The notes beneath the pieces were generated by a model that searched no databases, was not told the DNA's origin, and saw only the letters and a list, made by a program, of their open reading frames with translations. Positions 1 to 61,451 of a DNA stretch of 64,000 bases are shown here, in pieces (positions within the stretch are counted from its first letter, which is position 1; each line of letters opens with the position of its first letter). The DNA is taken from contig CAVPQS010000046.1 in the NCBI GenBank assembly GCA_963707485.1, positions 2,434 through 66,433 on the forward strand, read 5' to 3'. This DNA is from an uncultured bacterium (lineage in GTDB: Bacteria > Zixibacteria > MSB-5A5 > CAIYYT01). A program made the position numbers and the translations under genes.

Positions 1-591
1 GCGAGTACGAATCACCATGGTCAGGGGCTGCGACCACAAATTCGTCGCGCGCAAGTTTAAGCGCATCGTCGACTGGGAGAAATCGGCATCACCGTTGGTG
101 CGGTCGTGCTGGGTCATCCACTGCAAGGCAGCGGAACCGTATATGCGCGAGGCATTCGCCGAGTTGCGATTGGGTTGCTTACGCGAAGCCGTTGCCGGAA
201 CCGCAGTCGAATCGGAAGTCAATGTGTCGGCAGCAACAACGGCACTCGCCCGCTCGACTCTACTGATTACGCTGACGAATTGACCGGCTTTCAACTCCGT
301 GTCGCCGCCAACAATTTTACACGATGCTGAATGATCTGAGGCATAGGCGACTTCGAGGATAACGGAGAAGCCGTCGCCGCTTTGGATTCCGAGGCGATCG
401 CCGGGCAAAAGTCCGTCGGCCTTACCGCCTTCGAGATAAATTCGATCAACGGAGCGATATTTGATACGGTATTGCGTGGGCAGAGTTGAATCCTGTGCAC
501 GGGACGGAACCGACATGACGCCTATAAGGGCCAGTGCGAAGTAAATGGTAGATTTTGAACACAGATTCCGCAGAGTGAAAGTAATCGACAC
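1..591 (-). CDS. Secreted hypothetical protein, 3'-truncated at the window edge. It lies immediately downstream of the giant cytochrome and may be an outer-membrane beta-barrel or porin-like protein.
   Basis: I hand-translated the minus strand from ATG at 516 to position 1 and found no stop in 172 codons, so the gene continues past the window. Extending upstream in the same frame to GTG 589-591 gives a signal-peptide-like N-terminus (RNLCSKSTIYFALALIGVMSVPSRAQ). That codon sits directly after the cytochrome's TAG stop at 595-597. The distal part has alternating hydrophobic patterns (LNLRATNLW, LTMVIRTR) typical of beta-strands. The ORF is absent from the supplied track because no stop codon lies within the window. 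Confidence 0.4.
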   Translation of the reverse strand, partial: MSITFTLRNLCSKSTIYFALALIGVMSVPSRAQDSTLPTQYRIKYRSVDRIYLEGGKADGLLPGDRLGIQSGDGFSVILEVAYASDHSASCKIVGGDTELKAGQFVSVISRVERASAVVAADTLTSDSTAVPATASRKQPNRNSANASRIYGSAALQWMTQHDRTNGDADFSQSTMRLNLRATNLWSQPLTMVIRTR

Positions 592-594
592 TAG

Positions 595-3500
595 CTATTC
601 GCTTCCATCTGGATGACAGTTGAGGCATGCGGTACTCTGCCAAGTGTAGCCGGACACTTCTCGATGATCATTGTTCATATCCGTTTGATTGTGCTCATGA
701 CAGAAAATGCACTCGAAAACTGCATAATTCGACGAATTGACGTGGCAATCGGCGCAGGTATCCCACTTTTCCCGATGTTTGCCGGAATAGATCGGGAAGT
801 ACTGAGAGTCATGGTTCCAATTTGCCGGCGACCAAGCGCTGGTTGTGTGGCAGCTTTGGCACTCGGTTGGGAAATTGGCAGCCTGGTGATCGGGGTCGGT
901 GGCGCCGTCGTAAGCGGACTGGTGGCACGAGTAGCACAACATCGGCGTATTGACGTAGCCACCGGAATGACAATCGAGGCAGAGTAAGCCGACATGCGCC
1001 CCGGTCAACGGGAAGTTCGTGGCGCTGTGATTGAAAGTCGCCGGCGACCAAGCGGAGGTCGAGTGGCAATCATTACACAGATGGGAGAAGGCATTTGTGA
1101 CGTGATTCGGGTCAGTTACGCCGGTGAAGTCGCCCTGATGGCAACTGTAGCAAGCCGTCGGCGTGTTGGTGTAGCCGGTGGAATGGCAGGCAAGGCACTG
1201 GAGACTGGCATGGGCGCCGGTAAGCGGGAAACTTGTCGTGGTGTGATTAAATGTTGCCGGCGACCAGGCCGAAGTCGTGTGGCACGTCACGCAGTTATGG
1301 TCGAAATTATTCGCCGCATGGTTGGGGTCAGTCGCTGACGCGAAATCACCGGAGTGGCATGAGAAACAGGCGGTCGACGTATTGGTGTAACCTGTCGCAT
1401 GACAAGTCAGGCACTGGAGCCCGGCATGTCCGCCGGTCAGCGGGAATTGCGTCTGATTGTGATCGAAGGTCGCCGGTTCCCACGCAGTTGTGCCGTGGCA
1501 ATTGGTGCAAAGGTGGTCAAAGTTGTTGGTCACGTGATTCGGATCAGTGACCGACGTGAAGTCCGCGGAATGACAGCCGAAGCAGGTTTGATCGGTTCCG
1601 GCATAAGTCTGCAAATGACACGAAATGCATTGCAGCGAGGTGTGCGCGCCGACCAAGATGAAACCGGTCGAAGTGTGATTCCAGTTGGCGGGCGCCCAAG
1701 CGGAAGTCGCATGGCAACTCGCGCAGTCGTCAGAGAATGCGGCCTGGACGTGATTGGGATTAGTAGCTGATGTGACATCGGATTGATGGCACGAAATGCA
1801 TGTACTCGACGTGTTCGTGTAGCCGCCAACATGGCAAGTCACGCAAGCAACACTGCTGTGAGCGCCGGTAAGCGGGAAGTCGGTATTGCTGTGGTTGAAT
1901 GAACTCGGAGCCCAAGCTGACGTCGAGTGGCAAGTGGTGCAATCGTGATCGAAATTATTCTGCACGTGATTGGGCTCAGTTGCCGAAGCGAAATCGCCCT
2001 GATGGCAATCGAAGCATAGGCTCGGCGTATTGGTGTACCCGGTCGCATGGCAGGAAATACAAGCGAGAGAGGTGTGGGCGCCGGTCAAGTTGAAGCCGGT
2101 CTGGCTGTGGTCAAAATCGGCCGGTTCCCAAGCTGACGTCGAGTGGCAAGTGGTGCAATCGTGATCGAAATTATTCTGCACATGATTGGGCTCAGTTGCC
2201 GAAGTGAAATCGCCCTGATGGCAATCGAAGCATAGGCTCGGCGTATTGGTGTACCCGGTCGCATGGCAGGAAATACAAGCGAGAGAGGTGTGGGCGCCGG
2301 TCAAGTTGAAGCCGGTCTGGCTGTGGTCAAAATCGGCCGGTTCCCAAGCTGACGTCGAGTGGCAAGTGGTGCAATCGTGATCGAAATTATTCTGCACGTG
2401 ATTGGGCTCAGTTGCCGAAGTGAAGTCGCCCTGATGGCAATCGAAGCATAGGCTCGGCGTATTCGTGTATCCGCTGGCGTGACAGGAGATACAAGCGAGC
2501 GAAGTGTGGGCGCCGGTTAAGTTGAAGCCGGTCTGGCTGTGGTCAAAATCGGCCGGTTCCCAAGCTGACGTCGAGTGGCAAGTGGTGCAATCGTGATCGA
2601 AATTATTCTGCACATGATTCGGCTCGGTGGCCGAGGTGAAGTCGCCCTGATGGCAATCGAAGCATAGGCTCGGCGTATTCGTGTATCCGGTCGCATGACA
2701 GGAGATGCATGTCGTTGAAGTGTGTGCCCCTGTCAGGACGAATCCCGTAGTGCTGTGATCAAAGCTGCTGGGCGACCAGGCGGCAGTTGAGTGACAAGTG
2801 GTGCAATCGTGATCGAAATTATTCTGCACGTGATTGGGCTCAGTTGCCGAAGCGAAATCGCCCTGATGGCAATCGAAACATAACGTTGGCGTATTGGTGT
2901 ACCCGGTCGCATGACAGGAAATACATGTCGCTGTCGTATGGGCACCGGTCAATACAAAGCCGGTGGTGTTGTGATCAAAGCTGCTGGGCGACCAGGCGGA
3001 TGTCGAGTGACAGGAAGTGCAATCGTGATCAAAGTTGTTGGCAACGTGATTGGGATCGGTTGTCGAAGTGAAGTCACCGGTGTGGCAACTATAACATTGC
3101 GTGGAAGTCCCGGTGTAACCACTACTGTGACAGGAAAGACAGGCAAGCGCCTGATGCGCGCCGGTCAAGGCAAATTGCGTTTGATTGTGATCGAAGGTCG
3201 TCGGCGACCAGGAGAAATTAGTATGGCAGGTGAGGCAATTGTGATCGAAGTTGCTCGCCTCGTGGTCGGGGTCGTCTGCCTGTGCAAAGTCTCCGGAATG
3301 ACAGGAGAAACATAGCGGCGAGGTATCGGCATATCCGGCGCTATGGCAAGACTGGCATTGCAGGCCAACATGGGCGCCCTCGAGAGGGAAGCCGGTCAGT
3401 GTATGGTCGTATCCCTGCGGATCGACCGGAACCCAGGCAGTCGTATTGTGGCAACCGGCGCATTGATGGCTTAGACCGTTGGTGACGTGGTTAGGGTCGG

Positions 3501-4875
3501 AGGCAGCGGCAAAGACAACCTGGTGGCAAGCATAACAGTCATTGACAGTATTGGCATAGCCGGCGCTGTGGCACGATTGACAATCGACGTCGATGTGTGC
3601 GCCGTTGATTGCGAATCCAGTCTGGTCGTGGTCGAATTCAGCCGGCTGCCAGGCGGTCGTGGTGTGGCAAGTAATGCAATCATGGCTGAAGTCAGCCGAG
3701 ACATGGTCGGGATTGTTCGTAGCGGTGAAGCTTGCGCTGTGGCAAGAGAAACAATCCGTGGGCGTGCTGACGTAGCCGGTGCTGTGGCAGCTTTGGCATT
3801 CAAGCGGTCGATGGGCGCCGGTGAGCGCGAAATTCGTAGCATCGTGATTAAAGCTTGCCGGCTCCCAGGCATTTAGATTGTGGCAGGTGCGGCAATCGTG
3901 ATCAAAATTTCCGGCTGTGTGGTCCGGTTCTTTGGCTTGCGCAAAGGCGGTATTATGGCAGCTAAAGCAATCGGTCGCCGTTCCGGAGTAAGTGTCACTG
4001 TGGCAATCCTGGCACTGGACGGTAGCATGCGCACCTTCAAGAGCAAAAGATGTCAGGGAGTGGTCAAATGCCGCCGGAGTCCAGGCAGTCATTTTGTGGC
4101 ACTGGCTGCAATCCTGTGAGAAGTTGGCTGCTTCGTGATCCGGGTCTGGTGCGCTGAGATAATCTGTATTGTGGCAAGAGTAGCAATCCGTTGGCGTGCC
4201 GACGAACTGGGTAGCGTGGCACGAGGCGCAATCGAGGCCGATATGCGCGCCTTCGAGAATCGGTGTGGGCGGATGGTCAAATTTCGCACCGGACCAATCT
4301 AAGGCAGTTGAGCGATGACACTGAACGCAGTCGGCGCTGAATCCGGCGAGGACGTGGTTGGGATCTTCGGTCGAGGCGAAGTCACTTTCGTGGCAAGATT
4401 GACACTCGGGCGAAGTCCCTGCGTACTGGTCGCTTAACTGGCCCTGATGGCAGGATTGGCAATCGGCAATCGCGTGGGCTCCCATGAGGGCAAATCCGCG
4501 AGTGGCATGAATTTCGAAAGTTTCCTGCTCGTTTTGCCAGCCGCGAGTTGTGTGGCAATTTTGACAAAGGGAGCCAAGTTGTCCGCTGTGGGGATCGGCG
4601 TGACAGTTAGCGCAATCTTCGGCGACGTTTGCGAATGCCAGATCGTTATGGCAAGCCATGCACTTGACTTGCTTATGCTTACCGGAGAGTGGAAAGCCGG
4701 TTTGCTCGTGAGGGAACGGTTTGTCCGTTCTCATCTGGGTCCAGCCGCCGGTAGAATGGCAGGTCGCGCAATCAAACTTGATGTCACCGTGCGGGTTATC
4801 ACCCTGGGCGAGAGTTGTGATTGTGAGTCCGGTAGTGAAAGCAATTGTCAGACATACTCTTAACAGAGCAATCAT
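595..4875 (-). CDS. Giant secreted multiheme c-type cytochrome, 1426 aa, about 58 CXXCH motifs, built from about 19 repeats of a 72-aa triheme unit.
   Basis: The supplied translation has an N-terminal signal peptide (MIALLRVCLTIAFTTGLTITTLAQG). I counted about 58 CXXCH heme-binding motifs by hand. A recurring ~72-aa unit has the pattern FDH-x-TGF-x-LTGAH-x4-C-x-SCH-x-GY-x-T-x3-CF-x-CH-x-DF-x5-PNHV-x3-F-x-DC-x2-CH-x3-AW-x-P. Confidence 0.9.
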   Translation of the reverse strand: MIALLRVCLTIAFTTGLTITTLAQGDNPHGDIKFDCATCHSTGGWTQMRTDKPFPHEQTGFPLSGKHKQVKCMACHNDLAFANVAEDCANCHADPHSGQLGSLCQNCHTTRGWQNEQETFEIHATRGFALMGAHAIADCQSCHQGQLSDQYAGTSPECQSCHESDFASTEDPNHVLAGFSADCVQCHRSTALDWSGAKFDHPPTPILEGAHIGLDCASCHATQFVGTPTDCYSCHNTDYLSAPDPDHEAANFSQDCSQCHKMTAWTPAAFDHSLTSFALEGAHATVQCQDCHSDTYSGTATDCFSCHNTAFAQAKEPDHTAGNFDHDCRTCHNLNAWEPASFNHDATNFALTGAHRPLECQSCHSTGYVSTPTDCFSCHSASFTATNNPDHVSADFSHDCITCHTTTAWQPAEFDHDQTGFAINGAHIDVDCQSCHSAGYANTVNDCYACHQVVFAAASDPNHVTNGLSHQCAGCHNTTAWVPVDPQGYDHTLTGFPLEGAHVGLQCQSCHSAGYADTSPLCFSCHSGDFAQADDPDHEASNFDHNCLTCHTNFSWSPTTFDHNQTQFALTGAHQALACLSCHSSGYTGTSTQCYSCHTGDFTSTTDPNHVANNFDHDCTSCHSTSAWSPSSFDHNTTGFVLTGAHTTATCISCHATGYTNTPTLCFDCHQGDFASATEPNHVQNNFDHDCTTCHSTAAWSPSSFDHSTTGFVLTGAHTSTTCISCHATGYTNTPSLCFDCHQGDFTSATEPNHVQNNFDHDCTTCHSTSAWEPADFDHSQTGFNLTGAHTSLACISCHASGYTNTPSLCFDCHQGDFTSATEPNHVQNNFDHDCTTCHSTSAWEPADFDHSQTGFNLTGAHTSLACISCHATGYTNTPSLCFDCHQGDFTSATEPNHVQNNFDHDCTTCHSTSAWEPADFDHSQTGFNLTGAHTSLACISCHATGYTNTPSLCFDCHQGDFASATEPNHVQNNFDHDCTTCHSTSAWAPSSFNHSNTDFPLTGAHSSVACVTCHVGGYTNTSSTCISCHQSDVTSATNPNHVQAAFSDDCASCHATSAWAPANWNHTSTGFILVGAHTSLQCISCHLQTYAGTDQTCFGCHSADFTSVTDPNHVTNNFDHLCTNCHGTTAWEPATFDHNQTQFPLTGGHAGLQCLTCHATGYTNTSTACFSCHSGDFASATDPNHAANNFDHNCVTCHTTSAWSPATFNHTTTSFPLTGAHASLQCLACHSTGYTNTPTACYSCHQGDFTGVTDPNHVTNAFSHLCNDCHSTSAWSPATFNHSATNFPLTGAHVGLLCLDCHSGGYVNTPMLCYSCHQSAYDGATDPDHQAANFPTECQSCHTTSAWSPANWNHDSQYFPIYSGKHREKWDTCADCHVNSSNYAVFECIFCHEHNQTDMNNDHREVSGYTWQSTACLNCHPDGSE
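1890..2990. repeat. Near-identical 216-bp tandem repeats, about 5 copies, inside the giant cytochrome gene. Each copy encodes one 72-aa triheme unit.
   Basis: Copies start near 1912, 2128, 2344, 2560 and 2776 at 216-bp spacing. They differ by only a few substitutions. More degenerate copies flank the array across most of 700..4400. Confidence 0.8.
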
Positions 4876-4889
4876 GTCACAGTCCAGTA

Positions 4890-6596
4890 TTAGAGATCAC
4901 CGGTCTTACTATCATGGCAACTATTGCAGTCCGTCTTTAATGGTTTGTATCGGACTAAAACGGTTGATTCTTCAATGACATTTTTGTGACATTCGCCACA
5001 GGGTACACGAGCGTGCGCGCCTTCAAGACGATAACGCGAATCACGGTCATGGTTAAATTTTGATGCCTTCCAATTATCGGTGGTATGGCAACGCTCACAA
5101 ACGGTCGCCCCAGCCACGACAAACTGACCTCGGTGAATATCAATATGACAATCGTTGCAGTTACTTGGCAGTAGCGCGAAAGTCAGCATTGATACATTCG
5201 TTCTATCATTTTTGTTCCCGTGACAGTCCAAACATTTTGCCGTGACATGTTTTCCAATAAGTGGAAATTTTGTGGAATCGTGGGCAAAGGTGGACTCGCT
5301 CCAACTCTGGACCGAGTGACAACTTTCGCAGCCGCCGGCCTGTACCCACTTGTCTGCCTTACCGCTGTGTGGATCCTTGTGGCAGGTCTTGCAGGCTGAT
5401 TGTTCAAACGTGAAGCGGTATTCGCGCGGGGATTTTCCCGGCGGCGAGCTTATGTGACAAGCATCACATGGGACGGCCAAATGCGCGCCCTTGAGCGGAT
5501 AAGAAGAACTGTCGTGCTGTTCCACTGTGAATATTCCGGGACGGAATCCATCTACGTTATGGCAGCGCTCGCATTTCGGTCCGCCGGGGCTCTTGGCAAA
5601 TGCGCCTTGATGGAAATCCTTGTGGCAGTCGCTGCAGAGACTAAACGCGAGTGTCTTACGCGGTTCTTCCTGCTTGTGGCATTTTGCGCAGACGAGCGGT
5701 TTATGCATACCGAGCAGCGGAAAGCGCGTTCGGCTGTGATCGAAACTGTTGTTGTCGACCGACCGCCAACCGTTGACGTTGTGGCAACTGGCACAGTTCG
5801 GTCCCAATCTGCCGACATGAGGGTCTTTATGGCAGGAGCTGCATTCGGAGAATTGAAGTCCAGTGAACTTCCGGTAGGAAGTGTCGGCGACGTTAGCGGG
5901 GTCGCTCACAGTCGGGTGGCACTTGGCGCACGCCACCTGCACGTGGAGCCCGGCAAGCGCGTATTTGGCTTTTTGATGGTCAAACGCTGCGGCCGGTTTC
6001 CAGGATGCGTTAGAGTGGCACGACTCGCAGGTTGAGGCGACCTGACCGCGGTGCTCATCGAAATGGCAGCTTTTGCAGGCGGTCGACAGGCCCTGGTAGG
6101 TGCGCGCCGGGTCCTTTTGTGCGTCGCCTTCGCGAAATTCGGGTGGGAGATTTTTTGCTGTATGACACTGGCGGCATTGCAGCGGTTTATGTGCGCCGGT
6201 GAGTTCGTATCCGGTTAGATTATGATCAAAGGCGGAGTCGCCGTCTTTCCAGTAGACGAGATCGAAATCACGCCCGTGATGTTCGACGTGGCATTCCTCG
6301 CAGGCGTTGTATTTGTTGCGTCCATGCAGACCCGTACTTGATTCAAGTTGTTTCTTAACTATGGTGTGGCAGTTCAGGCAATTCGGGGCGATATGCGTTT
6401 CGTCAGCGCCATGGCAGGACTTGCAATTGTCAAGACCTTCCAGATGTGCGTGGGCTTTGGAAAGATCGCCGGGCGAGAGTTGTGCAATTGCCGGGTTAAT
6501 ACCGGCGATCAAGAGCAACACGAAGGAGAAAAGGAATGCGCGAATATGAAACCGCCGATTCGCAATGCGGGCGAAATGCAAGGGGTGTCTGGACAT
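4890..6596 (-). CDS. Multiheme c-type cytochrome, 568 aa, about 20 CXXCH, secreted or membrane-anchored.
   Basis: There is a hydrophobic N-terminal signal or anchor (FLFSFVLLLIAGINPAIAQ). I counted about 20 CXXCH motifs, including CKSCH, CLNCH, CEECH and CRQCH. The stop lies 14 nt upstream of the 58-heme cytochrome start on the same strand. Confidence 0.9.
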   Translation of the reverse strand: MSRHPLHFARIANRRFHIRAFLFSFVLLLIAGINPAIAQLSPGDLSKAHAHLEGLDNCKSCHGADETHIAPNCLNCHTIVKKQLESSTGLHGRNKYNACEECHVEHHGRDFDLVYWKDGDSAFDHNLTGYELTGAHKPLQCRQCHTAKNLPPEFREGDAQKDPARTYQGLSTACKSCHFDEHRGQVASTCESCHSNASWKPAAAFDHQKAKYALAGLHVQVACAKCHPTVSDPANVADTSYRKFTGLQFSECSSCHKDPHVGRLGPNCASCHNVNGWRSVDNNSFDHSRTRFPLLGMHKPLVCAKCHKQEEPRKTLAFSLCSDCHKDFHQGAFAKSPGGPKCERCHNVDGFRPGIFTVEQHDSSSYPLKGAHLAVPCDACHISSPPGKSPREYRFTFEQSACKTCHKDPHSGKADKWVQAGGCESCHSVQSWSESTFAHDSTKFPLIGKHVTAKCLDCHGNKNDRTNVSMLTFALLPSNCNDCHIDIHRGQFVVAGATVCERCHTTDNWKASKFNHDRDSRYRLEGAHARVPCGECHKNVIEESTVLVRYKPLKTDCNSCHDSKTGDL

Positions 6597-7457
6597 TTAG
6601 GAAAGTCCCGAAAATCCAGTCCAAACCGCAACACCTATATGAATGCCCATGATCAAATACATGATAATTGCAAAGGGCTTGTGGATGACGTGCCAGTAGT
6701 GGAAGACCTCGCGCGTACGGTCGAGCATTTCGATTCGGCGGGCAAGCGCGGAGCGTTCAAGTGCAAGTTTGACAATTAGTTTGGCGCTCTTGTCGGAGAC
6801 TTTTACAGTCTTCTTCAATTCGCGCGTCAGTTTGCTAGTTGCGAACGGGCGAGTTAAATCGGAAATGAACATTCGGATTAAGAGGGTGAGAAACGAACTT
6901 TCGGCCCCCGTGCCGCGTTTTGCGAGTGTATCAATATGAGCAAGCTGTTCCGGCTGGAGATCGAACTGTTCTTGAAGCGTTAAGGTTGACTGAAGCATCT
7001 GCTTGTCGATTTCCGAAAGCGACAATTCATCGCCCTCCTGATTGCGAGGAATCTGGATGTACAGGTATCGCCCAAGGTAACCGCTAATGGCGACCGCAAC
7101 CATTGACCAGAAGGCGACGGCAATCAGGCCCTGCACCTTAAATGATGAATGCAAAATGATGAAGAGCGGTCCGCAGACGCCAAGATAAATGTGCAATTTC
7201 AACCAGTTTCGGAGGGTGATTTTTTTGCCCAGCAGTTTGGTACGCTTACGAAGAGAGTAGGTCAGCATGAGGATCATCATGGCGGCGCCGATGTAGCCAT
7301 AGGCGATACCACGGCTGCCGGCCGGTCGCAGTTGGCGGTAATCCTCATGATGCGGGCGTTCGGTATATGGAGTATTGTAGTAGTTAAATCCCGCAATAAG
7401 GCAATAGACGATTGCAATTAGAGTTACGACATACAGAATGACCAGCGGACGTTTCAT
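6597..7457 (-). CDS. Polytopic membrane protein, 286 aa, with His residues in transmembrane helices. It is the first gene of the cytochrome operon and may bind heme b or quinone.
   Basis: It has four N-terminal hydrophobic helices and one C-terminal helix (FHYWHVIHKPFAIIMYLIMGIHIGVAV). The third helix also carries two His residues (LHIYLGVCGPLFIILH). Its stop directly abuts the ATG of the 20-heme cytochrome, suggesting translational coupling. I do not recognise a family. Confidence 0.55.
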   Translation of the reverse strand: MKRPLVILYVVTLIAIVYCLIAGFNYYNTPYTERPHHEDYRQLRPAGSRGIAYGYIGAAMMILMLTYSLRKRTKLLGKKITLRNWLKLHIYLGVCGPLFIILHSSFKVQGLIAVAFWSMVAVAISGYLGRYLYIQIPRNQEGDELSLSEIDKQMLQSTLTLQEQFDLQPEQLAHIDTLAKRGTGAESSFLTLLIRMFISDLTRPFATSKLTRELKKTVKVSDKSAKLIVKLALERSALARRIEMLDRTREVFHYWHVIHKPFAIIMYLIMGIHIGVAVWTGFSGLS

Positions 7458-7579
7458 GAGTTCCCATAATAAAATAATTCGATTAGAATTTTAAACGCGA
7501 TTCGTTCTACAAGTATATCGACTTAAAGGTTCATTAAACTGAGCGGTGGCAGGGAGTAAACTAAAGCGGACAAGATCTC

Positions 7580-24124: not shown

Positions 24125-27100
24125 CTAGTCCCCGCTCACCGTCAGGGTAAATGGCGACCAGTAGTAAGGGTGCCGATGCCGCAGACGCGGTGAATTTATC
24201 ATTTCCAGTTTTGCGCGGCGCAGCGCTTCAGCATAACCAGATGACAGGTTTTGGTAGAAAGTCTTCATGAACGTGGCTGTGGTAAAGTCCTCGACTTCCC
24301 AGAGTGACACCAACAAATTATGGGCGCCGGCTTGCATGAAAGCCTTGACGAAGCCGTCCATTCCCTCGCTGACATCGAGTTTGCCGCCGCCGGATTCGCA
24401 AGACGACAAGACAACCAGGTCGGCGCTGAGTTTCAGTTCGTCGACTTCCGCCAGAGTCAGATAACTTTCGGCATTAGTCGCGGTGGTGTCATCCGAGAGC
24501 CAGATTTTAGATCGAGCCGGATCGCGATAATTAATCGTCGAGTGGGTCGCGGCGTGAAAGATCCGGTAGTCGGCGAGTCGAAGCCGCAGGAGTTCAGCTT
24601 TGGTGGCAGTTGACGCAGTGAGGATCGTGCAATTATTCGCTCCGAAGATGCCGCAAATCCAATCGACCTCGCGCGCACTGAACGGCAGTTGGCGTTGCTG
24701 CGAGTCTGAGCGAGGATCGGCCAACGCGAGAATGTGCCAGTTTTCGGTGCGCCGGGGCCCAAGTTCCTGTGGTGAAAACAGGAATAGCGAAGGCAAGGCA
24801 GCAACGGCGGCGTATTCGATCAGGTACTTGCCGTCAATCCGGAGCGCTTCAAAGGGCAAGATTGACAAGACGCCATCAGATGAGATAAGAATGCGGTCAA
24901 AGGAATCGGGGACCAGCAATGATTTTGGCAGGAGCAATTGACCGACTTGAGCTGCCGCTGTATATAGACTGTCGAGTAAGCTGTCGTTCTTGATTGACAA
25001 TTGTATCAGACGCATGAATTCGGAGATCGACGGGGTGAGAATCTCCCGTCCAGGCAAGAGCTCAGTCTTGATCTGAGTCTTGCAGATCAGAAGCGCGTAA
25101 CTTTCGTCGGGCGTGAGCAGGTACGAGATCAGGACCGTGCGACTATCGGGAAGTGCAGATTGGAGTCTCATTATTGCAATAGGCTCGGGCGTGTAGACAC
25201 GAACTGCAGCGGCGTTCGCGACACCAGCTTTGAGCCGCAGATCAGACAGTGTTTTCTCGAGGTCGGAAAGTTTCGCAACTTTCGCTTTCACCGATCGCGG
25301 AATTGAGTCATCAGCAAGTGAAGACTCAACTTGCTCAATTTCGCGTAAAAGTTGTCGCTCGCCGGTTTTATTAGGACGATGTTTGGACTCGGGACCTGTA
25401 GAACTGCGTTCGGCGATGATGTCGAGGAGTCCGCGCGACTTGGCTCTTTCGATATAAATCAGCAGCGAGTCATCATAGTCGCGGTTGTTTCCGCTTTGGC
25501 GAATGTGAAAGAGTGTCTTGACCATTTCTTCATACACCGATCGTGCCTGCGATTGAAAGCTTCCGCGCAGTTGTTCATCGGGAATGGACCCGCGTGATTT
25601 CTCTGATCGGGCTATGATTCGCGCAAGGTAACGATAGGCATCGTGCCACCGGCTCTCGTCGATCGCTATGTTCGAATGAATGATGTCGATTTTCTGCGAG
25701 TTGGAATAGGTGCGGCAGGAATCGAGGAGAATCTCTGCGCGCGCCAACAGGTCTTTAGACGCGGAGAGGTCTTTGTTTTCGCGGCTAAAATCGGACCGGA
25801 GACAAAGCAGGTCGATTCGGCGTTGCAGTGTCAACACGCCGGCCTGGAGTGTCGACGCGCTGTCGAGTAATTGAATTGCTTGCCTGTGATTGCCCAGAGC
25901 TTGCTCAATGCGAGCGCGGGCTATCAGCGAATTGCTCAGACCTCGCCTATCGTTGCTGAGTCCGGCAATTTCGGCCGATTTGGCGGCATAGTCGAGAGCG
26001 GCGGTTGTATCACCGACAGCGCAGTACAGTTCGGAAAGATTGCCCAGAGTTTCGCCGGATTGCAGGCGAAGATCGACTTGACGACGAATATCGAGGGCGC
26101 GTTGATAATAGTCGATTGCCGATTCGAGATCGCCGAGCTGCTGATGCAGAGAGCCGAGGTTATGGAAAATTGTCGCCAGAGCCACACGGTTACGCGTTTT
26201 GACTGCCAAGTCTTCCGCCTGCAGGTAGTGCTCAAGTGATTGCGTAAAGTAACCCAGTGAGGACTCAAGTGCGGCATAGTTTTGCAGGACTGCTAAGGCG
26301 AGTCGGTGGCTATTAGCCGCCATCGACGAGCGGACTGCTTCGTCATAGAGCGTTATCGCCGAATCAAGGTCTCCTTTTAGCTCGGCAAGAATCGCTCGGC
26401 AATAAGTTAATCGAACTGGGTCGCTTTTCGCAGGCAATGCAACGCCGAGGGCAGTAGCCTCATCGAACCATTCATTTAGCTGCGAGACCTGCACTTCGCG
26501 TGCAAAGGCTGGTATCATGGTAACGAGCGAAGTGTAAACTGAAGTCGAGTCCTGCAGCGCGCGCCGCAACGCGAGGGATTCTTCGGCAAATCGCCGGGCG
26601 TTGTGTTTGTCGCCGATTGAAAGGTATATGGACGCGATGTTGCTCAGACATTCGGCGACTCCGGCCCGGTCGCCAAGTTCGGCTTTAATCACCCGCGCCG
26701 AGTCAAAGTATGCGCCGGCTTTGATGAATTCCAACTTCTCGCTTAACAGCCTTCCCAAGAGATTGTAACTTCGTGAAAGGGCATCCAGATCACCGATGAG
26801 TCGACTTAGGTTCAAACTTTGATTCAGAATCTTGTCGGCCAATTCGGTGGTCATGCCTCTCGCGGCCGCGTGCTGCCACGAGTTTGCCGCCGAGCTTGAA
26901 TCACCGAATGCGAGAAACTCATTTCCCAGTTCGGCCATCTGGCTGCTATAAATTTCTACCGGTCCCTTGTTTCCGGCCAAGCCTTCAAGATTGGTAGAGA
27001 ATTGCAGTTTGAGCTGGCTGCGAAGCAGGAAGTAATGTTGTTTCCAAGTCTTGAACTTGCTGCATTGGCGGACATAAAAGTCGTCGCCGTATTCAGTTAG

Positions 27101-27379
27101 CACGAAATTTGCAGCTTCTTGTATTTGCTCAAAGAGGACCGTGTCGCCCGTGTCAAAGTAGTTTTCGAGTCCGCGCTGGAGATAGCGGTATAGTTCAAAG
27201 CGACTGCCAAAATCGAGCGAATCGGGCTCGGAGGACGCAAGAGCCGGAGTTGAATTCTGCGTTAGTAGAAATGTCAGGGTCAGCAGCAGGCACTTTAAGA
27301 GCATGATTGGCAATCTACGCCAGAACGGACGCATTGACAAGCGTGATACGGCGAGCCAGAAAATTGACAGCAATGCCAA
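24125..27379 (-). CDS. Secreted TPR-repeat protein with a C-terminal CHAT (caspase-like) domain, 1084 aa.
   Basis: It has a signal peptide (LLLTLTFLLTQNSTPALA) and many TPR-like repeats in the first ~600 aa. The CHAT hallmarks are HAATHS ... LVVLSSCESGGG ... LLVSLWEVEDFTTATFMKTFYQNL. Confidence 0.85.
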   Translation of the reverse strand: MALLSIFWLAVSRLSMRPFWRRLPIMLLKCLLLTLTFLLTQNSTPALASSEPDSLDFGSRFELYRYLQRGLENYFDTGDTVLFEQIQEAANFVLTEYGDDFYVRQCSKFKTWKQHYFLLRSQLKLQFSTNLEGLAGNKGPVEIYSSQMAELGNEFLAFGDSSSAANSWQHAAARGMTTELADKILNQSLNLSRLIGDLDALSRSYNLLGRLLSEKLEFIKAGAYFDSARVIKAELGDRAGVAECLSNIASIYLSIGDKHNARRFAEESLALRRALQDSTSVYTSLVTMIPAFAREVQVSQLNEWFDEATALGVALPAKSDPVRLTYCRAILAELKGDLDSAITLYDEAVRSSMAANSHRLALAVLQNYAALESSLGYFTQSLEHYLQAEDLAVKTRNRVALATIFHNLGSLHQQLGDLESAIDYYQRALDIRRQVDLRLQSGETLGNLSELYCAVGDTTAALDYAAKSAEIAGLSNDRRGLSNSLIARARIEQALGNHRQAIQLLDSASTLQAGVLTLQRRIDLLCLRSDFSRENKDLSASKDLLARAEILLDSCRTYSNSQKIDIIHSNIAIDESRWHDAYRYLARIIARSEKSRGSIPDEQLRGSFQSQARSVYEEMVKTLFHIRQSGNNRDYDDSLLIYIERAKSRGLLDIIAERSSTGPESKHRPNKTGERQLLREIEQVESSLADDSIPRSVKAKVAKLSDLEKTLSDLRLKAGVANAAAVRVYTPEPIAIMRLQSALPDSRTVLISYLLTPDESYALLICKTQIKTELLPGREILTPSISEFMRLIQLSIKNDSLLDSLYTAAAQVGQLLLPKSLLVPDSFDRILISSDGVLSILPFEALRIDGKYLIEYAAVAALPSLFLFSPQELGPRRTENWHILALADPRSDSQQRQLPFSAREVDWICGIFGANNCTILTASTATKAELLRLRLADYRIFHAATHSTINYRDPARSKIWLSDDTTATNAESYLTLAEVDELKLSADLVVLSSCESGGGKLDVSEGMDGFVKAFMQAGAHNLLVSLWEVEDFTTATFMKTFYQNLSSGYAEALRRAKLEMINSPRLRHRHPYYWSPFTLTVSGD

Positions 27380-28241: not shown

Positions 28242-28715
28242 ATGGAGACGAAAGATCAGGAATTCAAGCCCTTCAATGTAGATGTTTGGAAGCACGACGG
28301 CCACGCCGGAGCGCTGATTCCACTTCTTCAATCCGCTCAGGACACCTACGGTTATGTCTCTGAACGCGCGATGGATTACATCAGTCATGTTACCGGAATA
28401 CCACCCGCCGAGATTTACGGCGTGGTGACGTTTTATGCCCAATTTCGGACTAAGCCACTTGGTGAAAAAATTATCAAAGTCTGTAATGGCACCGCTTGTC
28501 ATGTCAACGGTGTAAAGGAAATCGCGAATACGCTGAAGGATGAGCTGGGGATAGACTACGAGGAGACGACCGAGGATGGAAAAGTCAGCATGGTATCGGT
28601 TGCGTGTCTTGGCTGTTGCTCTTTGGCGCCAGTAGTCATGGTGAGCAACGAGACTTTTGGGCGCTTAACTCCGCAAAAGACGCGGAAGCTTGTGCGCGAC
28701 TTGAGACGGAAATAG
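28242..28715 (+). CDS. NuoE/HoxE/HndA-like [2Fe-2S] thioredoxin-fold subunit (24-kDa-subunit-like).
   Basis: It carries the cysteine quartet of the NuoE family (C-x4-C ... C-x3-C: VCNGTACH ... VACLGCCSLAP). A GGAGA SD precedes the ATG. Confidence 0.85.
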   Translation: METKDQEFKPFNVDVWKHDGHAGALIPLLQSAQDTYGYVSERAMDYISHVTGIPPAEIYGVVTFYAQFRTKPLGEKIIKVCNGTACHVNGVKEIANTLKDELGIDYEETTEDGKVSMVSVACLGCCSLAPVVMVSNETFGRLTPQKTRKLVRDLRRK

Positions 28716-28726
28716 GACCGGCGAAA

Positions 28727-30490
28727 ATGGCAATCAAGACGGTAATGGTTGGTATGGCTACCTGTGGAATCTCCGCCGGCGGCGAAAAAGTATACGAAGC
28801 GTTCCAGAGAGAGCTTCAGGACGGCGCCGATTTCGTTCTCCGCGAAACCGGATGCGTCGGCATGTGCTATCGTGAAGTCCTGGTATCGATCTCCAATGGC
28901 GACGGAGTCAATTATCTCTACGGCGAAGTTACGGCGGATCGCGTCAAGAGAATTGTCAGTGAACACATTCAGGGCGACGCGCCGATTGACGAATGGTTGG
29001 TGTCTGGAGTTGGGCGCGAGGTCGGTTTTTTTGACAAACAAGTGCGAATTGTACTGCGCAACTGCGGCGTAATCGACCCCAGTTCTTTGGAAGAATACAT
29101 TCAGAGCGGCGGCTACCAGGCAATAAGTAAGGTCCTGAAAGAGTTGTCGCCGGAACAAGTAATTAAAGAAGTCCAGATCTCGGGATTACGAGGGCGCGGC
29201 GGCGGTGGATTTCCAACCGGGAAAAAATGGGAGTTGGCGAGAGCCAGCGTCGGCGACAAGAAATATATCATATGCAATGCTGACGAAGGCGATCCGGGCG
29301 CGTTCATGGATCGTTCGGTTCTTGAGGGTGATCCGCACTCGGTTCTCGAAGGAATGATGATCGGCGGATACGCCATCGGCGCCGACGAGGCATACATATA
29401 TTGCCGCGCAGAGTATCCGAAAGCCGTTGCAAGATTGCGGATGGCGATTGCACAAGCCAGGAAGCAGGGGCTGCTCGGCAAAGATATACTTGGCAGCAAG
29501 TTTAGTTTCGATATCAAGGTAAAGGAAGGCGCTGGAGCCTTTGTCTGCGGTGAAGAGACGGCGCTGATTGCTTCGATCGAGGGCCGGCGCGGAATGCCGC
29601 GATTTCGTCCGCCCTTCCCCGCTCAAAAAGGACTGTGGGGCAAACCGACGAGCATTAACAATGTCGAGACATTTGCCAACATCCCGTGGATCATACTCAA
29701 TGGCGGCGCGGCTTACGCAGCTTACGGCACCGACGACAGCAAAGGCACAAAGGTATTCGCGATGGCCGGCAAGGTCAAGCGCACCGGTCTGGTTGAAGTG
29801 CCGATGGGCATCAGCATTAACGACATCATCTATAAAGTCTGCGGCGGCATCGTCGACGACAAGAAGTTCAAGGCCGTGCAAATGGGCGGGCCCTCCGGCG
29901 GATGCATTCCGGCCTCGCTCGGCGAAACCCTGATCGATTACCAGCAAATCAACAAGACGGGCGCGATTATGGGTTCCGGCGGAATGGTCGTGATGGACGA
30001 AACTACCTGCATGGTGGACGTGGCGAAGTTCTTCCTGACGTTTACGCAAGCGGAGTCGTGCGGCAAATGCACGTTCTGCCGAATCGGCACGAAGCGGATG
30101 CTCGAAATACTCGAGAGGATCACCGAGGGCAAGGGTCGCGAAGAAGATCTGGCAACACTCGACCAACTTGGCGAGCAGATCAAGATCGCCTCACTATGCG
30201 GTCTCGGGCAGACGGCGCCGAACCCGGTGCTTTCGACGCTCCGTTATTTCCGCGACGAATATGAGGCGCACATCCTGCGGAAGAAGTGTCCGGCGCACGT
30301 GTGCGCGCCGCTTTTGACTTTCACGATCGACCAAGAAAAATGCAACGGCTGTATGCTTTGTCCACGCTCCTGCCCGTCAAACGCCATACTCGGTGAAAAG
30401 AAAATGCCGCACAGAATATTGCAGGATCTGTGCACTCAGTGTGGCAAGTGCTTCACAGTATGCAACCAAGACGCGGTAATCAAGGACTGA
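28727..30490 (+). CDS. NuoF/HoxF/HndC-like flavoprotein subunit with NAD(H)- and FMN-binding sites and [4Fe-4S] clusters, plus a C-terminal 2x[4Fe-4S] ferredoxin domain.
   Basis: It has the FMN/NADH glycine-rich motifs (GRGGGGFPTGKKW; ICNADEGDPGAFMDR) and a [4Fe-4S] motif (ESCGKCTFCR). A C-terminal ferredoxin is present (CNGCMLCPRSCP ... CTQCGKCFTVC). The start at 28727 overlaps the NuoE-like stop. Confidence 0.85.
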   Translation: MAIKTVMVGMATCGISAGGEKVYEAFQRELQDGADFVLRETGCVGMCYREVLVSISNGDGVNYLYGEVTADRVKRIVSEHIQGDAPIDEWLVSGVGREVGFFDKQVRIVLRNCGVIDPSSLEEYIQSGGYQAISKVLKELSPEQVIKEVQISGLRGRGGGGFPTGKKWELARASVGDKKYIICNADEGDPGAFMDRSVLEGDPHSVLEGMMIGGYAIGADEAYIYCRAEYPKAVARLRMAIAQARKQGLLGKDILGSKFSFDIKVKEGAGAFVCGEETALIASIEGRRGMPRFRPPFPAQKGLWGKPTSINNVETFANIPWIILNGGAAYAAYGTDDSKGTKVFAMAGKVKRTGLVEVPMGISINDIIYKVCGGIVDDKKFKAVQMGGPSGGCIPASLGETLIDYQQINKTGAIMGSGGMVVMDETTCMVDVAKFFLTFTQAESCGKCTFCRIGTKRMLEILERITEGKGREEDLATLDQLGEQIKIASLCGLGQTAPNPVLSTLRYFRDEYEAHILRKKCPAHVCAPLLTFTIDQEKCNGCMLCPRSCPSNAILGEKKMPHRILQDLCTQCGKCFTVCNQDAVIKD

Positions 30491-30498
30491 GGCGATTC

Positions 30499-33400
30499 AT
30501 GATAACGATTACAATCAATGGAAATAAGGTCACCGCAGATCCGAACAAGACCATTCTGGAGACTGTCCATGAGCAGAAGCTCGATTCAATTCCCACGCTG
30601 TGTTATGACAAGAAGCTGGAACCATTCGGTTCGTGCTTTCTTTGTGTTGTCGAAGTGGCTGGAATGAACAAGCTGGTTCCGTCGTGCGCGACGAAGCCGT
30701 GGGACGGCATGGTGGTGCAGACGAAATCGCCGAAGGTCGTTGACGCGCGCAGGACTTGTCTCGAACTGCTGGTGTCAAACCACTATGCGGACTGTTTCGG
30801 TGCGTGCCGGCTCAACTGCCCGGCGGATGTTGATATCCAGGGCTATCTCTCCCTCACCTATTTGGGCAAGTATCATGAAGCCGTTCAGCTCATCAAGGAG
30901 AAGAATCCATTCCCATCAGTTTGCGGGCGCGTTTGTACGCGCAAGTGCGAGCTATCATGCCGCCGGAAAATGATCGACGATGCGGTTGGAATCGACTATT
31001 TGAAAAGATTCTCCGCCGACAAGGACCTCGAGGACATGTGGACGCCGCATCCGAAACCGCGCAACGGCAAAAAAGTTGCGATTATAGGCGGCGGCCCGGC
31101 AGGACTGACCTGCGCATATTATTTGACGCTCGAAGGCTATGAACCGACTGTCTTCGAAGCATTGCCCGAACTGGGTGGAATGCTGCGGTATGGAATTCCG
31201 GAGTACCGATTGCCTAAGGCGATTCTCGATAAAGAAATCAAGTGGATAACTGATCTCGGTGTCGAGGTCCACACCAACACCAAACTTGGCCGCGACATTA
31301 CACTCGACGGCTTGTTTGATCAGGGCTTCAAGTCTGTATTCGTCGGTCTCGGGGCGCAGCTCGCAAAGAGTATGGGTATCGCTAACGAGCAGGTTAAGAA
31401 TATTCTCGGTGGCGTTGATTTCCTTCGCGATGTAACGATGATCAACGCGCCAAAGTTCTCCGGTCGGGTGGTCGTAGTTGGCGGCGGCAATACTGCTATC
31501 GACGCGGCACGGACATCATTGCGACTGGGCGCTTCAGAAGTGGTGCTTCTGTACAGACGGACGCGCAAAGAGATGCCCGCCAACGAGCTTGAGATCGTGG
31601 CGGCGGAAGAAGAAGGAATCAATTTCAAGTATCTGGCGGCGCCAACAAAGATTAACTCAAAAGACGGTGTGCTTCAATCGATGGAGTGCATCGAGATGGA
31701 ATTGGGTGAACCGGACGCCTCGGGGAGGCGACGCCCAGTCGAGAAGAAGAATTCCAATTTCACTCTCGAATGCGATTTTGTCATCTCGGCGATTGGACAA
31801 GAAGCGGATTTGACCGGCGTCGAAAATGGCAACGCGGGCGAGACTGATATCGAACTGAGCAAGTGGCATACAATCATTGCGGCTGAAGGTTCATTTAACA
31901 CCAATCGCGCCGGCGTGTTCGCGGGTGGAGATGTTGTTACCGGACCGGCAGATGCCATTGACGCGGTTGCGGCAGGACGGATGGCGGCCTTTGCGATTCA
32001 ACGCTACATCGAGACCGGCCACTACGAGCGGCTCAAACCACTTTTTGCCAGCCGTAAGGACAATCTCAAGGAATTCACCAGCGAAGACTTCAGCGACCCA
32101 GTATCCAGCCAGAGAACGCATATCTCGGAGTTGCCGGTTGAAGAACGCATACACTCGTTTAAGGAAGTTGAACTCGCATTGACCGAAGAACAGGCCAAGT
32201 TCGAAGCTTGCCGCTGCATGGAGTGCGGCTGCCAGGTCGCGCTGGAATGCCGATTGCAGGACTACTGCGCGGAATATGGCGCCGACCAGAAACGTTTCGT
32301 CGGCGAGTTCAACCGATATAAGGTTGACACCAGACACCCCTTCATCACGCTGGATTCGAACAAGTGCATTAACTGCGGCCGCTGTGTGCGAACCTGCGCG
32401 GAGATTCTTGATGTCTCGGCACTGGGGTTTGTGAATCGCGGCTTCCGAACGATGGTGAAGCCCGCGATGAACAAGGCGCTTGCCGATACGAATTGCGTAT
32501 CGTGCGGCAATTGCGTCGATGCGTGCCCGACCGGCGCTATCGTGAACAAGTTGCCGTTCGGACGATCGGGGCCATGGTTGATGAATCGCATAAAGAATGT
32601 CTGCAACTTCTGCTCGATCGGCTGCAATGTAGAGATCAAGGCTAAGACTGCGGATTTGTTTTATGTGTCCGGTTCGTTCGAAGGCGAGCCGAATTTCGGC
32701 GAGCTTTGCGTTCGCGGCCGCTACGGCTATCAGCAACTCTTGGGAAATGAGCGGATGCGGAAACCACTTATCCGCAAAGGTGCGGATCTCGTGCCCGCGA
32801 CTTGGGAACAAGCCTGGGAACGAATCGAGCAAGGAATCAAGGATCTGAAGGTGGAATACGGCGGCGGCGCGCTTATGGTTGCGGCCTCGCCGAAGCTGAC
32901 TAATGAAGAACTGTACCTTGCAGGTAAATTGGCGCGCGTAACGCTCGAGACAAATGCAATCGGCAGTTTCCAGCGATTGGCAACCGATGCAGACTATCAC
33001 AGCCTCGACAACATGCTCGGAGCGACGACTTCGAGTTGTGGAACCAAGGAGCTTGAGGCTGCGGATATAATTCTTCTGGTAAACTGCGATCCGTTTACGG
33101 AGAACCCGGTTTTGGGTTGGCGGCTGAAGCGGATGCTCAAGAAGGGGAAGCAAGCGATTGTCATCAATTCTTCCGACATCGGCATAAACCGTTATGCTAC
33201 TCAATGGCTTGACCCGCGGCGCGGCTCTTCGACCTTATTGCTCAACGGCATAATGCTCGAACTAATGAAAAATGGCGGCGGGAATCTGGGTTATTTGGAG
33301 ACACGCACGGAAGGCTTCGAGCGATTCAAGCGGAGCCTGCTGGCACTTGATATTGAGGATGTGGAAGCAGTCACCGGTGTGCGTTCGGAGAAGATCTCGG

Positions 33401-42912: not shown

Positions 42913-43986
42913 TCACGCGGGCTTTAAGGACGGATCGGTCTTGAAGTAACGGCGCTGGAAGTACAGTGAGACGTTCACGAGCGCTATTAGAGTTGGTACC
43001 TCCACCAAGGGTCCGATGACGGCGGCAAACGCAACGCCGGAATTTACACCGAACACCGCCACGGCAACCGCGATTGCGAGTTCGAAGTTGTTGCTTGCCG
43101 CGGTGAACGACAATGTTGCGGTTTTCGAATAGTCTGCCCCGACGCGTTTGCCCATGTAGAAGCTGACAAGGAACATCACGACGAAATAGATCAGCAGTGG
43201 AATGGCGATGCGGACCACGTCGAGCGGAATCTGCACGATCATATTTCCCTTGAGGCTGAACATGACGAGGATCGTAAAGAGCAGCGCGATTAGTGTTATC
43301 GGACTAATCTTGGGAATGAAGACGGCATGATACCAATCCCGGCCCTTGGCTTTGATCAGAACAAATCGAGTCAACATGCCGGCAAAAAACGGAATCCCGA
43401 GGTAGACGAGAACGCTCTTGGCAATCTCCGACATTGAGACTTCGACGACGCTGCCCTCCAGTCCGAACCATCCGGGCAGGATCGTGATGAAGATCCAGGC
43501 ATAGAGACTGTAAAAAAGTATTTGGAAGATTGAATTGAATGCGACGAGTCCGGCGGCATAGTCAGTGTCTCCCGAGGCGAGTTCGTTCCAAACGATGACC
43601 ATCGCGATACAGCGCGCCAGGCCGATCATAATCAAGCCGGTCATATACTCCGGATAGCCGGAGAGAAACGCGATCGCGAGCAGGAACATCAGAGTCGGAC
43701 CAATGACCCAGTTTTGAACAAGCGATAACCCGAGCACGCGCCAATTGCGAAAAACCTTACCGAGTTCCTCATAGCGAACTTTGGCGAGCGGCGGATACAT
43801 CATCAGGATCAGGCCAATAGCGATGGGGATATTGGTCGTGCCGGATTGGAAGCGATTGATCACGCTTTCGATTTCCGGATAAAAGTGGCCGAAAGCTACT
43901 CCGAGAGCCATTGCAATGAATATCCACAGCGTCAAAAAGCGGTCGACGAAACCGAGATGCTTCGTTGGATTGCGTTTATCCGACAA
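42913..43986 (-). CDS. acr3: ACR3-family arsenite efflux transporter.
   Basis: The N-terminus [23 protein letters not shown] is typical of ACR3, and the protein has 10 TM helices. Confidence 0.85.
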
Positions 43987-61280: not shown

Positions 61281-61451
61281 TCGTCCTCCGACGTCGGTAG
61301 TTAAGTCGCATATTCGACCCAATTGGCGACGTTGTAGTTAACACTAACTAACAGGATCGGCACTGTCAAGGGAAAAGTGAGTTATTTTGTTACTTTTTTC
61401 ACAATCTTAGAGCCAAAGGACCGATGATCCCGATAGTTATTTACTCGTAAG

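Follow-up and report, generated by a model that had tools for sequence, protein, structure and literature searches.

The 64,000-nucleotide stretch analysed here (the window), part of contig CAVPQS010000046.1 of an uncultured bacterium of the Zixibacteria, begins with four closely packed genes on the minus strand (Table 1): those of an inner-membrane protein (IMP, gene 1), of a cytochrome with 20 CXXCH haem motifs (gene 2), of a giant cytochrome with 58 such motifs (gene 3) and of a predicted outer-membrane barrel whose end lies beyond the window (gene 4). Genes 1 and 2, 2 and 3, and 3 and 4 are separated by 0, 14 and 3 nucleotides (nt), no credible terminator was seen within the cluster, and the operon probably starts in the spacer ahead of gene 1, where a consensus scan, the only means applied here, finds a weak −35/−10 match (7495..7466; 9 of 12 consensus positions). 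They are the opening part of a conserved module of five genes, which we read, with a probability of about 0.75, as a trans-envelope electron conduit of a diderm cell. The preliminary description of this DNA had taken them for a four-gene operon; the open reading frames (ORFs), the common strand and the short gaps bear this out, and the number of genes has to be raised to five, as a second assembly and the relatives indicate. The haem counts of 20 and 58 given there are the exact CXXCH counts, and no CX3CH, CX4CH or CXXCK motifs occur in the cytochromes of the cluster; the epithet "His-rich" given to the membrane protein must be dropped, since it has merely 9 His in 286 residues (3.1%).

Table 1. 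Positions of the module, of its internal features and of other genes in the window (aa, amino acids; TM, transmembrane helix; AF2, AlphaFold2).
Feature	Window position	Residues	Strand	Remarks
Gene 1, IMP	7457..6597		-	286 aa
Gene 2, cytochrome with 20 CXXCH	6596..4890		-	568 aa
Gene 3, giant cytochrome with 58 CXXCH	4875..595		-	1426 aa
Gene 4, start of the barrel	591..1		-	GTG start at 591; 197 of 552 codons, exits the window
Upstream spacer	7458..7579		-	122 nt; holds the sole promoter-like site ahead of gene 1
IMP TM1		5-25		
IMP TM2		51-71		
IMP TM3		86-106		carries H89, H103
IMP TM4		110-134		SGxxG = S125-G126-x-x-G129 (S125-G-Y-L-G129)
IMP cytoplasmic helical insert		~135-255		~115 residues, between TM4 and TM5
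IMP TM5		256-280		W255 just ahead; H259, H273
Gene 3, central repeat block	1911..3249		-	similar 216-nt units (Tandem Repeats Finder)
Gene 4, N-terminal six-strand periplasmic domain	~262-474	40-110	-	AF2 prediction
TPR-CHAT protein	24125-27379		-	1084 aa
NuoF-like FMN/FeS protein	28604-30490		+	
Multidomain fusion following the NuoF-like protein	30430-34260		+	1276 aa
SBF-family transporter	42913-43986		-	
ArsP-type permease	46259-47566		-	
Eco57I/MmeI-type restriction-modification fusion	48077-51556		-	1159 aa
ORF without Pfam/NCBIfam match	52305-55886		+	1193 aa; adjoins the restriction-modification fusion
Multihaem cytochrome c fusion	55993-57960		-	11 CXXCH
Multihaem cytochrome c fusion	58026-60656		-	17 CXXCH
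TetR-family gene	60669-61322		-	

The related loci retrieved are the best 80 of the relatives that a profile of the IMP detected in 237 species-representative genomes; the same profile, run against 1.84 billion representative proteins, matched 3392 clusters, 457 of them at E <= 1e-30. An exact-protein look-up led moreover to an 8-kb contig (L001) of the Candidatus Zixiibacteriota metagenome-assembled genome (MAG) GCA_049664025.1, whose DNA is 100% identical to the window across genes 1 and 2 and the start of gene 4, and which is a second assembly of the same population.

Five TM helices are predicted for the IMP, both in the AF2 model (pLDDT, the predicted local distance difference test, 78) and by hydropathy, and by the positive-inside rule its N-terminus and its insert would be cytoplasmic. 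TM3 and TM5 bear the motifs W85-x3-H89-x13-H103 and W255-x3-H259-x13-H273, that is, two HX13H pairs, and in the topology model the paired His (H89 with H259, H103 with H273) stand at matching membrane depths. In 25 homologs of 47–78% identity the four His, W255 and the SGxxG motif never vary; W85 does. Motifs and model together suggest that the IMP is a putative di-haem b transmembrane electron carrier, with one haem near each membrane face, in agreement with the membrane anchor with possible haem b contact that had been proposed from the first inspection. What matters in this protein is a few invariant His in the TM helices and not the total His content. Its family relations are distant and coherent: the IMP scores 27.4 bits against DUF4405 (cut-off 26.7), a weak Pfam match, and 16.4 bits against Ferric_reduct, below the cut-off of 28, and the 25 relatives match, always weakly, Ferric_reduct in 11 cases, DUF4405 in 10 and Ni_hydr_CYTB in 6, the last being matched by relatives alone and not by the IMP of the window. 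Pfam places these three families in one clan of two-haem cytochromes. Overall, the matches are weak and consistently point to the Ferric_reduct, DUF4405 and cytochrome b561 families and to STEAP structures; no sequence match for the IMP was found in the PDB.

The products of genes 2 and 3 both carry a Sec signal (..PAIA/QL in gene 2), without a lipobox in the giant one, and both match the Pfam family Cytochrome_C7 (PF14522), with 76.9 and 152 bits respectively and a cut-off of 24.8. The 20 motifs of gene 2 lie in irregular, roughly triheme groups, with 28.4 aa per haem; gene 3 is laid out as a 5-haem head, seventeen triheme units of 72–75 aa and a 2-haem tail (24.6 aa per haem), where the haems of a unit are spaced by 15/25/32 residues and the three-haem period is 72 aa. 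The giant protein is rich in T (12.9%), A (10.0%) and S (9.6%), and besides the His of the CXXCH motifs it has 72 others for its 58 haems, with enough conserved ones among them for bis-His ligation. A phmmer comparison of the giant cytochrome with solved structures gave no match at E <= 0.001, and nothing meaningful came up when the sequences of both cytochromes, or a two-unit fragment, were searched against the PDB.

That the 58 haems were an artefact of assembly was considered and ruled out, given the divergence of the units and the existence of 58-haem orthologs in register. Units 9–11 are 93–99% identical in their DNA, and most of the 216-nt units reach a pairwise identity of merely 50–65%; the ortholog of locus L005, also with 58 haems, shares 71–88% protein identity with gene 3 between units of the same position, and the same number is found in several related species. 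Low identity between units, unit-by-unit orthology and several relatives with 58 haems thus make this version appear real. In L001 the giant gene (L001 2878-6294) has 46 haems, with an in-frame loss of 288 aa (4 units), which a comparison of the identical prefix and suffix maps inside the three near-identical central units. The 46-haem version is most likely a collapse of the repeats in short-read assembly, and for this reason caution is advisable wherever the haems of a giant cytochrome are counted in a MAG.

Completed from L001, gene 4 encodes 552 aa, and its AF2 model (pLDDT 80, mostly above 85 in the barrel) consists of a signal peptide (..SRA/QD), a six-strand beta domain, a disordered linker (111–148) and a 22-strand barrel, of which the window holds the signal, the beta domain, the linker and the first barrel strands. 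The downstream secreted protein that had seemed beta-barrel-like in its truncated form is modelled, once complete, as an outer-membrane barrel of 22 strands. It matches no family in Pfam or NCBIfam; the best structural matches of the barrel are the barrels of TonB-dependent receptors and Occ porins, not MtrB, and a plug or TonB-box domain is absent. A homolog search recovered 40 relatives, nearly all of 530–560 aa and all in this genomic context only, and a search of 83 loci detected the gene in 56; most of the others are contigs that end short of its position. The N-terminal domain (residues 40–110) contains the invariant Y45, Y52 and S88 and a lone, likewise invariant Cys, C91, within the motif HSASC.

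Across the relatives the two cytochromes obey different rules. Among 68 complete orthologs of the first, 57, spread over several phyla, have exactly 20 CXXCH, and the second, in the 37 loci of simple two-cytochrome organization, has from 4 to 73 haems, with 36 of the 37 counts following 3k+1 (1 mod 3). A fixed 20 next to a variable 4–73 speaks of one part cut to the length of the periplasm and of another without constraint on its length, and we infer that the product of gene 2 is a periplasm-spanning wire that enters the barrel, whose N-terminal domain could dock it, and that the product of gene 3 is an extracellular wire. Alternatively, neither cytochrome would leave the periplasm, where the two would store electrons or supply them to periplasmic reductases, and gene 4 would encode a bystander porin or transporter; a giant cytochrome with a plain Sec signal would be at home there, a barrel structurally nearest to receptors and Occ porins would suit a bystander, and giant cytochromes have been suggested to act as capacitors (PMC9900912; PMC11495043). 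Nevertheless, we regard such a confinement as very improbable, because 58–73 haems, at ~1 nm per haem (our own figure), would extend over more than 50 nm, far beyond the periplasm, and because the barrel constitutes a dedicated family, linked in its 40 relatives to this context, that has a small conserved N-terminal domain instead of a plug or TonB-box.

The fifth gene completes the module on its cytoplasmic side. In L001 an ORF starts 25 nt past the stop of gene 4, and its 17 visible codons, MESIYIWLVTIAVSLVI..., match the N-terminus of the protein that comes after gene 4 in relatives, where gene 5 immediately follows the barrel gene in all 46 loci with enough sequence. The proteins of the relatives, of 440–450 aa, show a TM helix at the N-terminus and a basic stretch after it, two Fer4 domains, Pyr_redox_3 and Pyr_redox_2, two iron-sulphur (FeS) motifs, CxxCxxCxxxCP and CxxHxxCxxxCP (2x [4Fe-4S]), and a FAD/NAD(P) domain of the thioredoxin-reductase/YpdA type with the motifs GAGPAG and GGGDSA; no redox-active CxxC occurs in the gene 5 proteins. 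The second FeS motif, in which a His replaces the second Cys, is found both in a close relative (L005 18480-19832) and in Emticicia (L084 9809-11131). It is conceivable that the His-ligated cluster might mark the site where electrons exit towards the IMP.

The order IMP, 20-haem cytochrome, giant cytochrome, barrel and flavoprotein is kept in nearly every locus that is long enough, so that a survey of co-occurrence finds the same arrangement in dozens of genomes and several phyla. The best 80 loci are labelled Zixibacteria, Calditrichota, Ignavibacteria, Eisenbacteria, Acidobacteriota, KSB1, Abyssobacteria and, in one case (L082, a contig that ends within the IMP gene), Deltaproteobacteria, and a GC-rich, more distant branch of the IMP corresponds to the Gemmatimonadales. 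Across the related loci no other conserved flanking gene was found near the module, upstream included. Established are the gene content, the motifs, the predicted folds and a synteny that goes far beyond what chance would produce. Six loci (L042, L049, L056, L060, L063 and L073) have an extra gene for a 9–10-haem cytochrome between those of the giant cytochrome and the barrel, which shows that the module tolerates an added component at its outer-membrane end.

A cultured member of the Bacteroidota, Emticicia oligotrophica DSM 17448, has the same five genes, EMTOL_RS21090-21110, on the plasmid pEMTOL02, in the order ccsA, IMP, flavoprotein, 23-haem cytochrome, 40-haem cytochrome and barrel, the flavoprotein gene being thus the second of the five; identities are 36% for the IMP, 33% for the 23-haem cytochrome, 42% for the 40-haem cytochrome and 23% for the barrel (E 5e-19). 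Giant cytochromes of the Bacteroidota have been noted as "undescribed" (PMC11495043). More distant IMP homologs are encoded by seven proteobacterial plasmids, six of them reaching, against the alignment of the IMP family, an hhalign probability of 99.4% (E 8e-22). In six of the seven the IMP gene is preceded by an FNR-like FAD/NAD gene with a 2Fe-2S domain, and in five of those six a cytochrome c gene comes after it, Roseomonas being the one without an annotated cytochrome c gene downstream; the cytochrome of the Bradyrhizobium BTAi1 plasmid, the sole one of the FNR-type plasmids that was translated, has 7 CXXCH. The Sphingobium plasmid has instead a Pyr_redox plus Fer4 gene upstream of the IMP gene, and downstream of it a gene with 10 CXXCH. 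The genomic partner of the IMP is thus repeatedly a cytoplasmic reductase of NAD(P) type. As for the surroundings of these plasmid modules, in Glaciecola pGLAAG01 (L087) and an Alteromonas macleodii plasmid (L088) a three-gene module of FNR-like/2Fe-2S protein, IMP homolog and cytochrome c3 lies near a [NiFe]-hydrogenase gene set, with one hypothetical gene between, and in the plasmids of Variovorax, Roseomonas and Qipengyuania the module lies near copper-resistance genes.

The architecture had been thought to be possibly undescribed, which proves incorrect: the same four-part design, made up of a porin, one cytochrome outside the cell, another in the periplasm, and an IMP, was published for Proteobacteria as PCC3 (He et al. 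2017, Front Microbiol 8:1584, PMC5566968), with hosts such as Sideroxydans lithotrophicus ES-1, Leptothrix cholodnii SP-6, Gallionellaceae and other Alpha-, Beta- and Gammaproteobacteria. According to that description, the extracellular cytochrome carries 34 haems in the median and 85 at most in a low-complexity, repetitive sequence rich in Thr, Ser, Ala and Gly, the periplasmic one a median of 21 haems at ~26–28 aa per haem, and the IMP, of ~300 aa and five helices, carries WX3HX13H on TM3 and TM5 and SGXXG on TM4, and was likened by its authors to the ferric-reductase domain (PMC5566968). The likeness to the present module extends to each part: 22 strands are modelled here for the barrel and were predicted for that of L. 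cholodnii; the giant cytochrome has Thr/Ala/Ser-rich repeats and 58 haems (4–73 in the relatives); the smaller one has 20 haems at 28.4 aa each; and the IMP, of 286 aa and five helices, has both WX3HX13H motifs and SGxxG. The PCC3 literature also argues in the same way for an inside and an outside cytochrome (PMC9900912). In contrast, the smaller cytochrome is fixed here at 20 haems and has 21, 24 or 27 in Gallionellaceae (PMC9900912), the hosts are Zixibacteria, Calditrichota, Ignavibacteria, Eisenbacteria, KSB1, Acidobacteriota, Gemmatimonadales and an isolate of the Bacteroidota, and a constant FeS/FAD/NAD(P) oxidoreductase gene is present that is missing from the description of PCC3. The module would accordingly in its design be a variant of the predicted PCC3 conduit, matched by its plan and described features and not by sequence: among the matches in the genome collection (the 237 species-representative genomes) there is no proteobacterial relative with the PCC3 gene set, a tblastn search of plasmids for proteobacterial PCC3 gave short IMP modules only, and a homolog search seeded with the GC-rich distant IMPs led to the Gemmatimonadales; no type sequence of PCC3 came out of these searches or of the profile search of the 1.84 billion representative proteins. 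A literature search found no paper describing the five-gene module, the version of this lineage or the flavoprotein partner.

Other known systems share single aspects of this plan. PCC4 comprises three small periplasmic cytochromes of 4, 5 and 10 haems and no extracellular one (PMC5566968). It and similar modules of an IMP with a multihaem cytochrome have the same IMP motifs and cytoplasmic Fe-S/redox genes adjoining that of the IMP, which the obligatory flavoprotein gene here resembles. The plasmid modules described above, in which an FNR-like/2Fe-2S or Pyr_redox/Fer4 gene precedes the IMP and cytochrome c genes, are also of this type, and they differ from the module of the window in that no barrel gene is annotated alongside and there is no giant cytochrome. 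With MtrCAB of Shewanella and MtoAB/PioAB the module would have in common a periplasmic multihaem cytochrome in an outer-membrane barrel that leads to a surface cytochrome. Membership of the MtrAB/DmsE group was, however, rejected: the DmsE/MtrA model scores 38–48 bits here, far below its cut-off of 192, the barrel is modelled with 22 strands and not the 26 of the MtrB family, a lipoprotein as outer cytochrome, as in OmcB/MtrC, is ruled out by the missing lipobox, and the entry at the inner membrane is not of the CymA/NapC type. It had been remarked at the outset that no canonical component, be it MtrB/OmbB porin motifs, NapC/NirT or CymA, was recognisable. The polymeric c7-type cytochromes of Geobacter (the GSU1996, GSU0592, GSU2210 family) are chains of ~70-residue triheme c7-like modules; in contrast, the giant protein is far longer, with 17 modules plus head and tail, and is encoded together with a barrel and an IMP. 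Two further candidates turned out to be different clusters: the "EET1-4" clusters of peat (2026 preprint), with cytochromes of 8–13 haems, and the MtrAB-like cluster of Zixibacteria RBG-1 (PMC3903129).

The ferric-reductase superfamily (NOX, FRE, STEAP, MsrQ/YedZ) offers a parallel for the inner half of the module as proposed here: in its members two helices bear the two HX13H pairs and hold two b haems stacked across the membrane, the donor is a FAD/NAD(P) dehydrogenase, and electrons reach the far side of the membrane. The IMP departs from them in having five helices with a cytoplasmic insert of ~115 residues and a sub-threshold score for Pfam Ferric_reduct, the dehydrogenase in being a separate, thioredoxin-reductase-like protein with two FeS sites and not a fused FNR module, and the acceptor in being a multihaem cytochrome. 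The flavoprotein and the IMP would then form an NAD(P)H-fed, split version of the NOX/FRE/STEAP arrangement. From the same parts, a FAD/NAD(P) domain and a two-b-haem membrane domain distributed over two genes, a non-respiratory function might be derived, in which the module would be a NAD(P)H-driven extracellular reductase, the diderm counterpart of FRE/NOX/STEAP, serving Fe(III) assimilation, redox balancing or the reduction of soluble oxidants, with the giant cytochrome as reach or as capacitor. Along this line, outward export from NAD(P)H would conserve no energy, and in Emticicia oligotrophica, which comes from warm spring water, the plasmid module lies beside a sigma factor of the extracytoplasmic function (ECF) type and outer-membrane genes. 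A role of this kind appears nonetheless quite unlikely to us, since an extracellular chain of 58 haems would be very costly for assimilating iron, no iron-uptake genes are conserved beside the module, and it is commonest in MAGs of sediment and subsurface lineages (a habitat read from the record titles), where respiration of solids is to be expected.

The self-contained conduit that the preliminary description had in mind finds all its components at the locus, with a putative b-haem IMP, a cytochrome of middle size, the giant putative haem wire and the modelled beta-barrel, and from their features we infer the binding of haem b, the inside and outside placing of the cytochromes, the electron donor and the direction of flow. 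The path could have the following steps: (i) the flavoprotein of gene 5, cytoplasmic and anchored to the membrane, would accept electrons from NAD(P)H via FAD and two [4Fe-4S] clusters; (ii) it would pass them to the cytoplasmic-side b haem of the IMP (H89, H259); (iii) they would cross the membrane to the periplasmic-side b haem (H103, H273); (iv) the 20-haem cytochrome would conduct them across the periplasm into the lumen of the 22-strand barrel; (v) and finally, the 58-haem chain of c7-like triheme units would carry them tens of nm outside the cell, where the terminal acceptors would be insoluble or polymeric, for instance humics, partner cells or oxides of Fe(III) and Mn(IV). Outward flow, starting from NAD(P)H at about −320 mV, is downhill both in redox and in electrical terms, and flow inwards to NAD(P)+ is uphill, which favours the export of electrons to insoluble or polymeric acceptors. 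That the conduit is specifically fed by NAD(P)H and runs outwards seems to us about an even chance. It would go further, and can be held only tentatively, at somewhat less than even odds, to see in the module a quinone-independent, split diderm counterpart of NOX/FRE, widespread in the Fibrobacterota–Chlorobiota–Bacteroidota (FCB) group and the Acidobacteriota, in which the 20-haem protein would be a "ruler" and the 3k+1 protein an adjustable wire.

The same conduit could also run in the opposite sense, coupled to quinones, taking up electrons from Fe(II), minerals, cathodes or partner cells, with the flavoprotein as an accessory or regulator. This is the published model of PCC3, proposed to be linked to the quinone pool and to run inwards in iron oxidisers (PMC5566968), in one of which, Sideroxydans CL21, the IMP gene is up during iron oxidation (bioRxiv 10.1101/2025.02.27.639646); furthermore, Zixibacteria RBG-1 has been proposed to be an iron oxidiser (PMC3903129), and the Ni_hydr_CYTB-type matches, although weak, relate the IMP family to quinone-reactive cytochromes b. 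The inward direction is unlikely, however, in a module to which the flavoprotein gene is linked in all 46 loci, whose distant IMPs lie recurrently beside FNR-like/FeS reductases, that is, with a cytoplasmic partner at the level of nucleotides and not of quinones, and beside which no terminal oxidase or bc1 genes are conserved, and the flow from Fe(II) to NAD(P)+ would be strongly uphill. Some points, nevertheless, weigh against the outward, NAD(P)H-fed conduit that we prefer. Together with the published quinone-linked proposal just cited, they are that PCC3 itself is still described as "functionally unverified" (bioRxiv 10.1101/2025.02.27.639646), that the giant cytochrome has no lipobox and no evident route of secretion through the outer membrane, that in this organism just the first 17 codons of gene 5 have been seen, in L001, that the IMP may have a quinone site, and that the wire could also receive electrons from two CbcL-like cytochromes of quinol type found further along the window.

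These last are encoded by two adjacent genes for multihaem cytochrome c fusions, which both end in a C-terminal di-haem cytochrome b domain of the FdnI/HydC type; multihaem c fused to cytochrome b is the architecture of CbcL of Geobacter. The pair are candidate quinol-linked entry points to the periplasmic cytochromes in the same genome. In another part of the window, the gene of the NuoF-like FMN/FeS protein is followed by that of the 1276-aa fusion, which unites 2Fe-2S, GltD-like FAD/NAD(P), NuoG-like FeS and molybdopterin-oxidoreductase domains, and this could be a formate dehydrogenase linked to NAD(P), or else a complex of the bifurcating kind. The remaining genes identified are given in Table 1.

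To our knowledge, porin-cytochrome conduits are understood experimentally only for the Mtr and the Geobacter Pcc/Ext systems, and the PCC3 type, which includes giant cytochromes, was predicted in 2017 and still has the status of a prediction. A design of PCC3 type with strict haem rules, 20 in one cytochrome and 3k+1 in the other, is here a conserved five-gene unit in many poorly known phyla, and its constant flavoprotein partner of NAD(P) type makes NAD(P)H, and no longer the quinone pool, the likely point where electrons enter. The plasmid copy in the cultured Emticicia oligotrophica DSM 17448 makes the function of a giant cytochrome and of an IMP of PCC3 type directly testable. If the NOX/FRE-like reading is true, the module would represent an unrecognised and major way in which electrons are disposed of outside the cell in sediments and soils.

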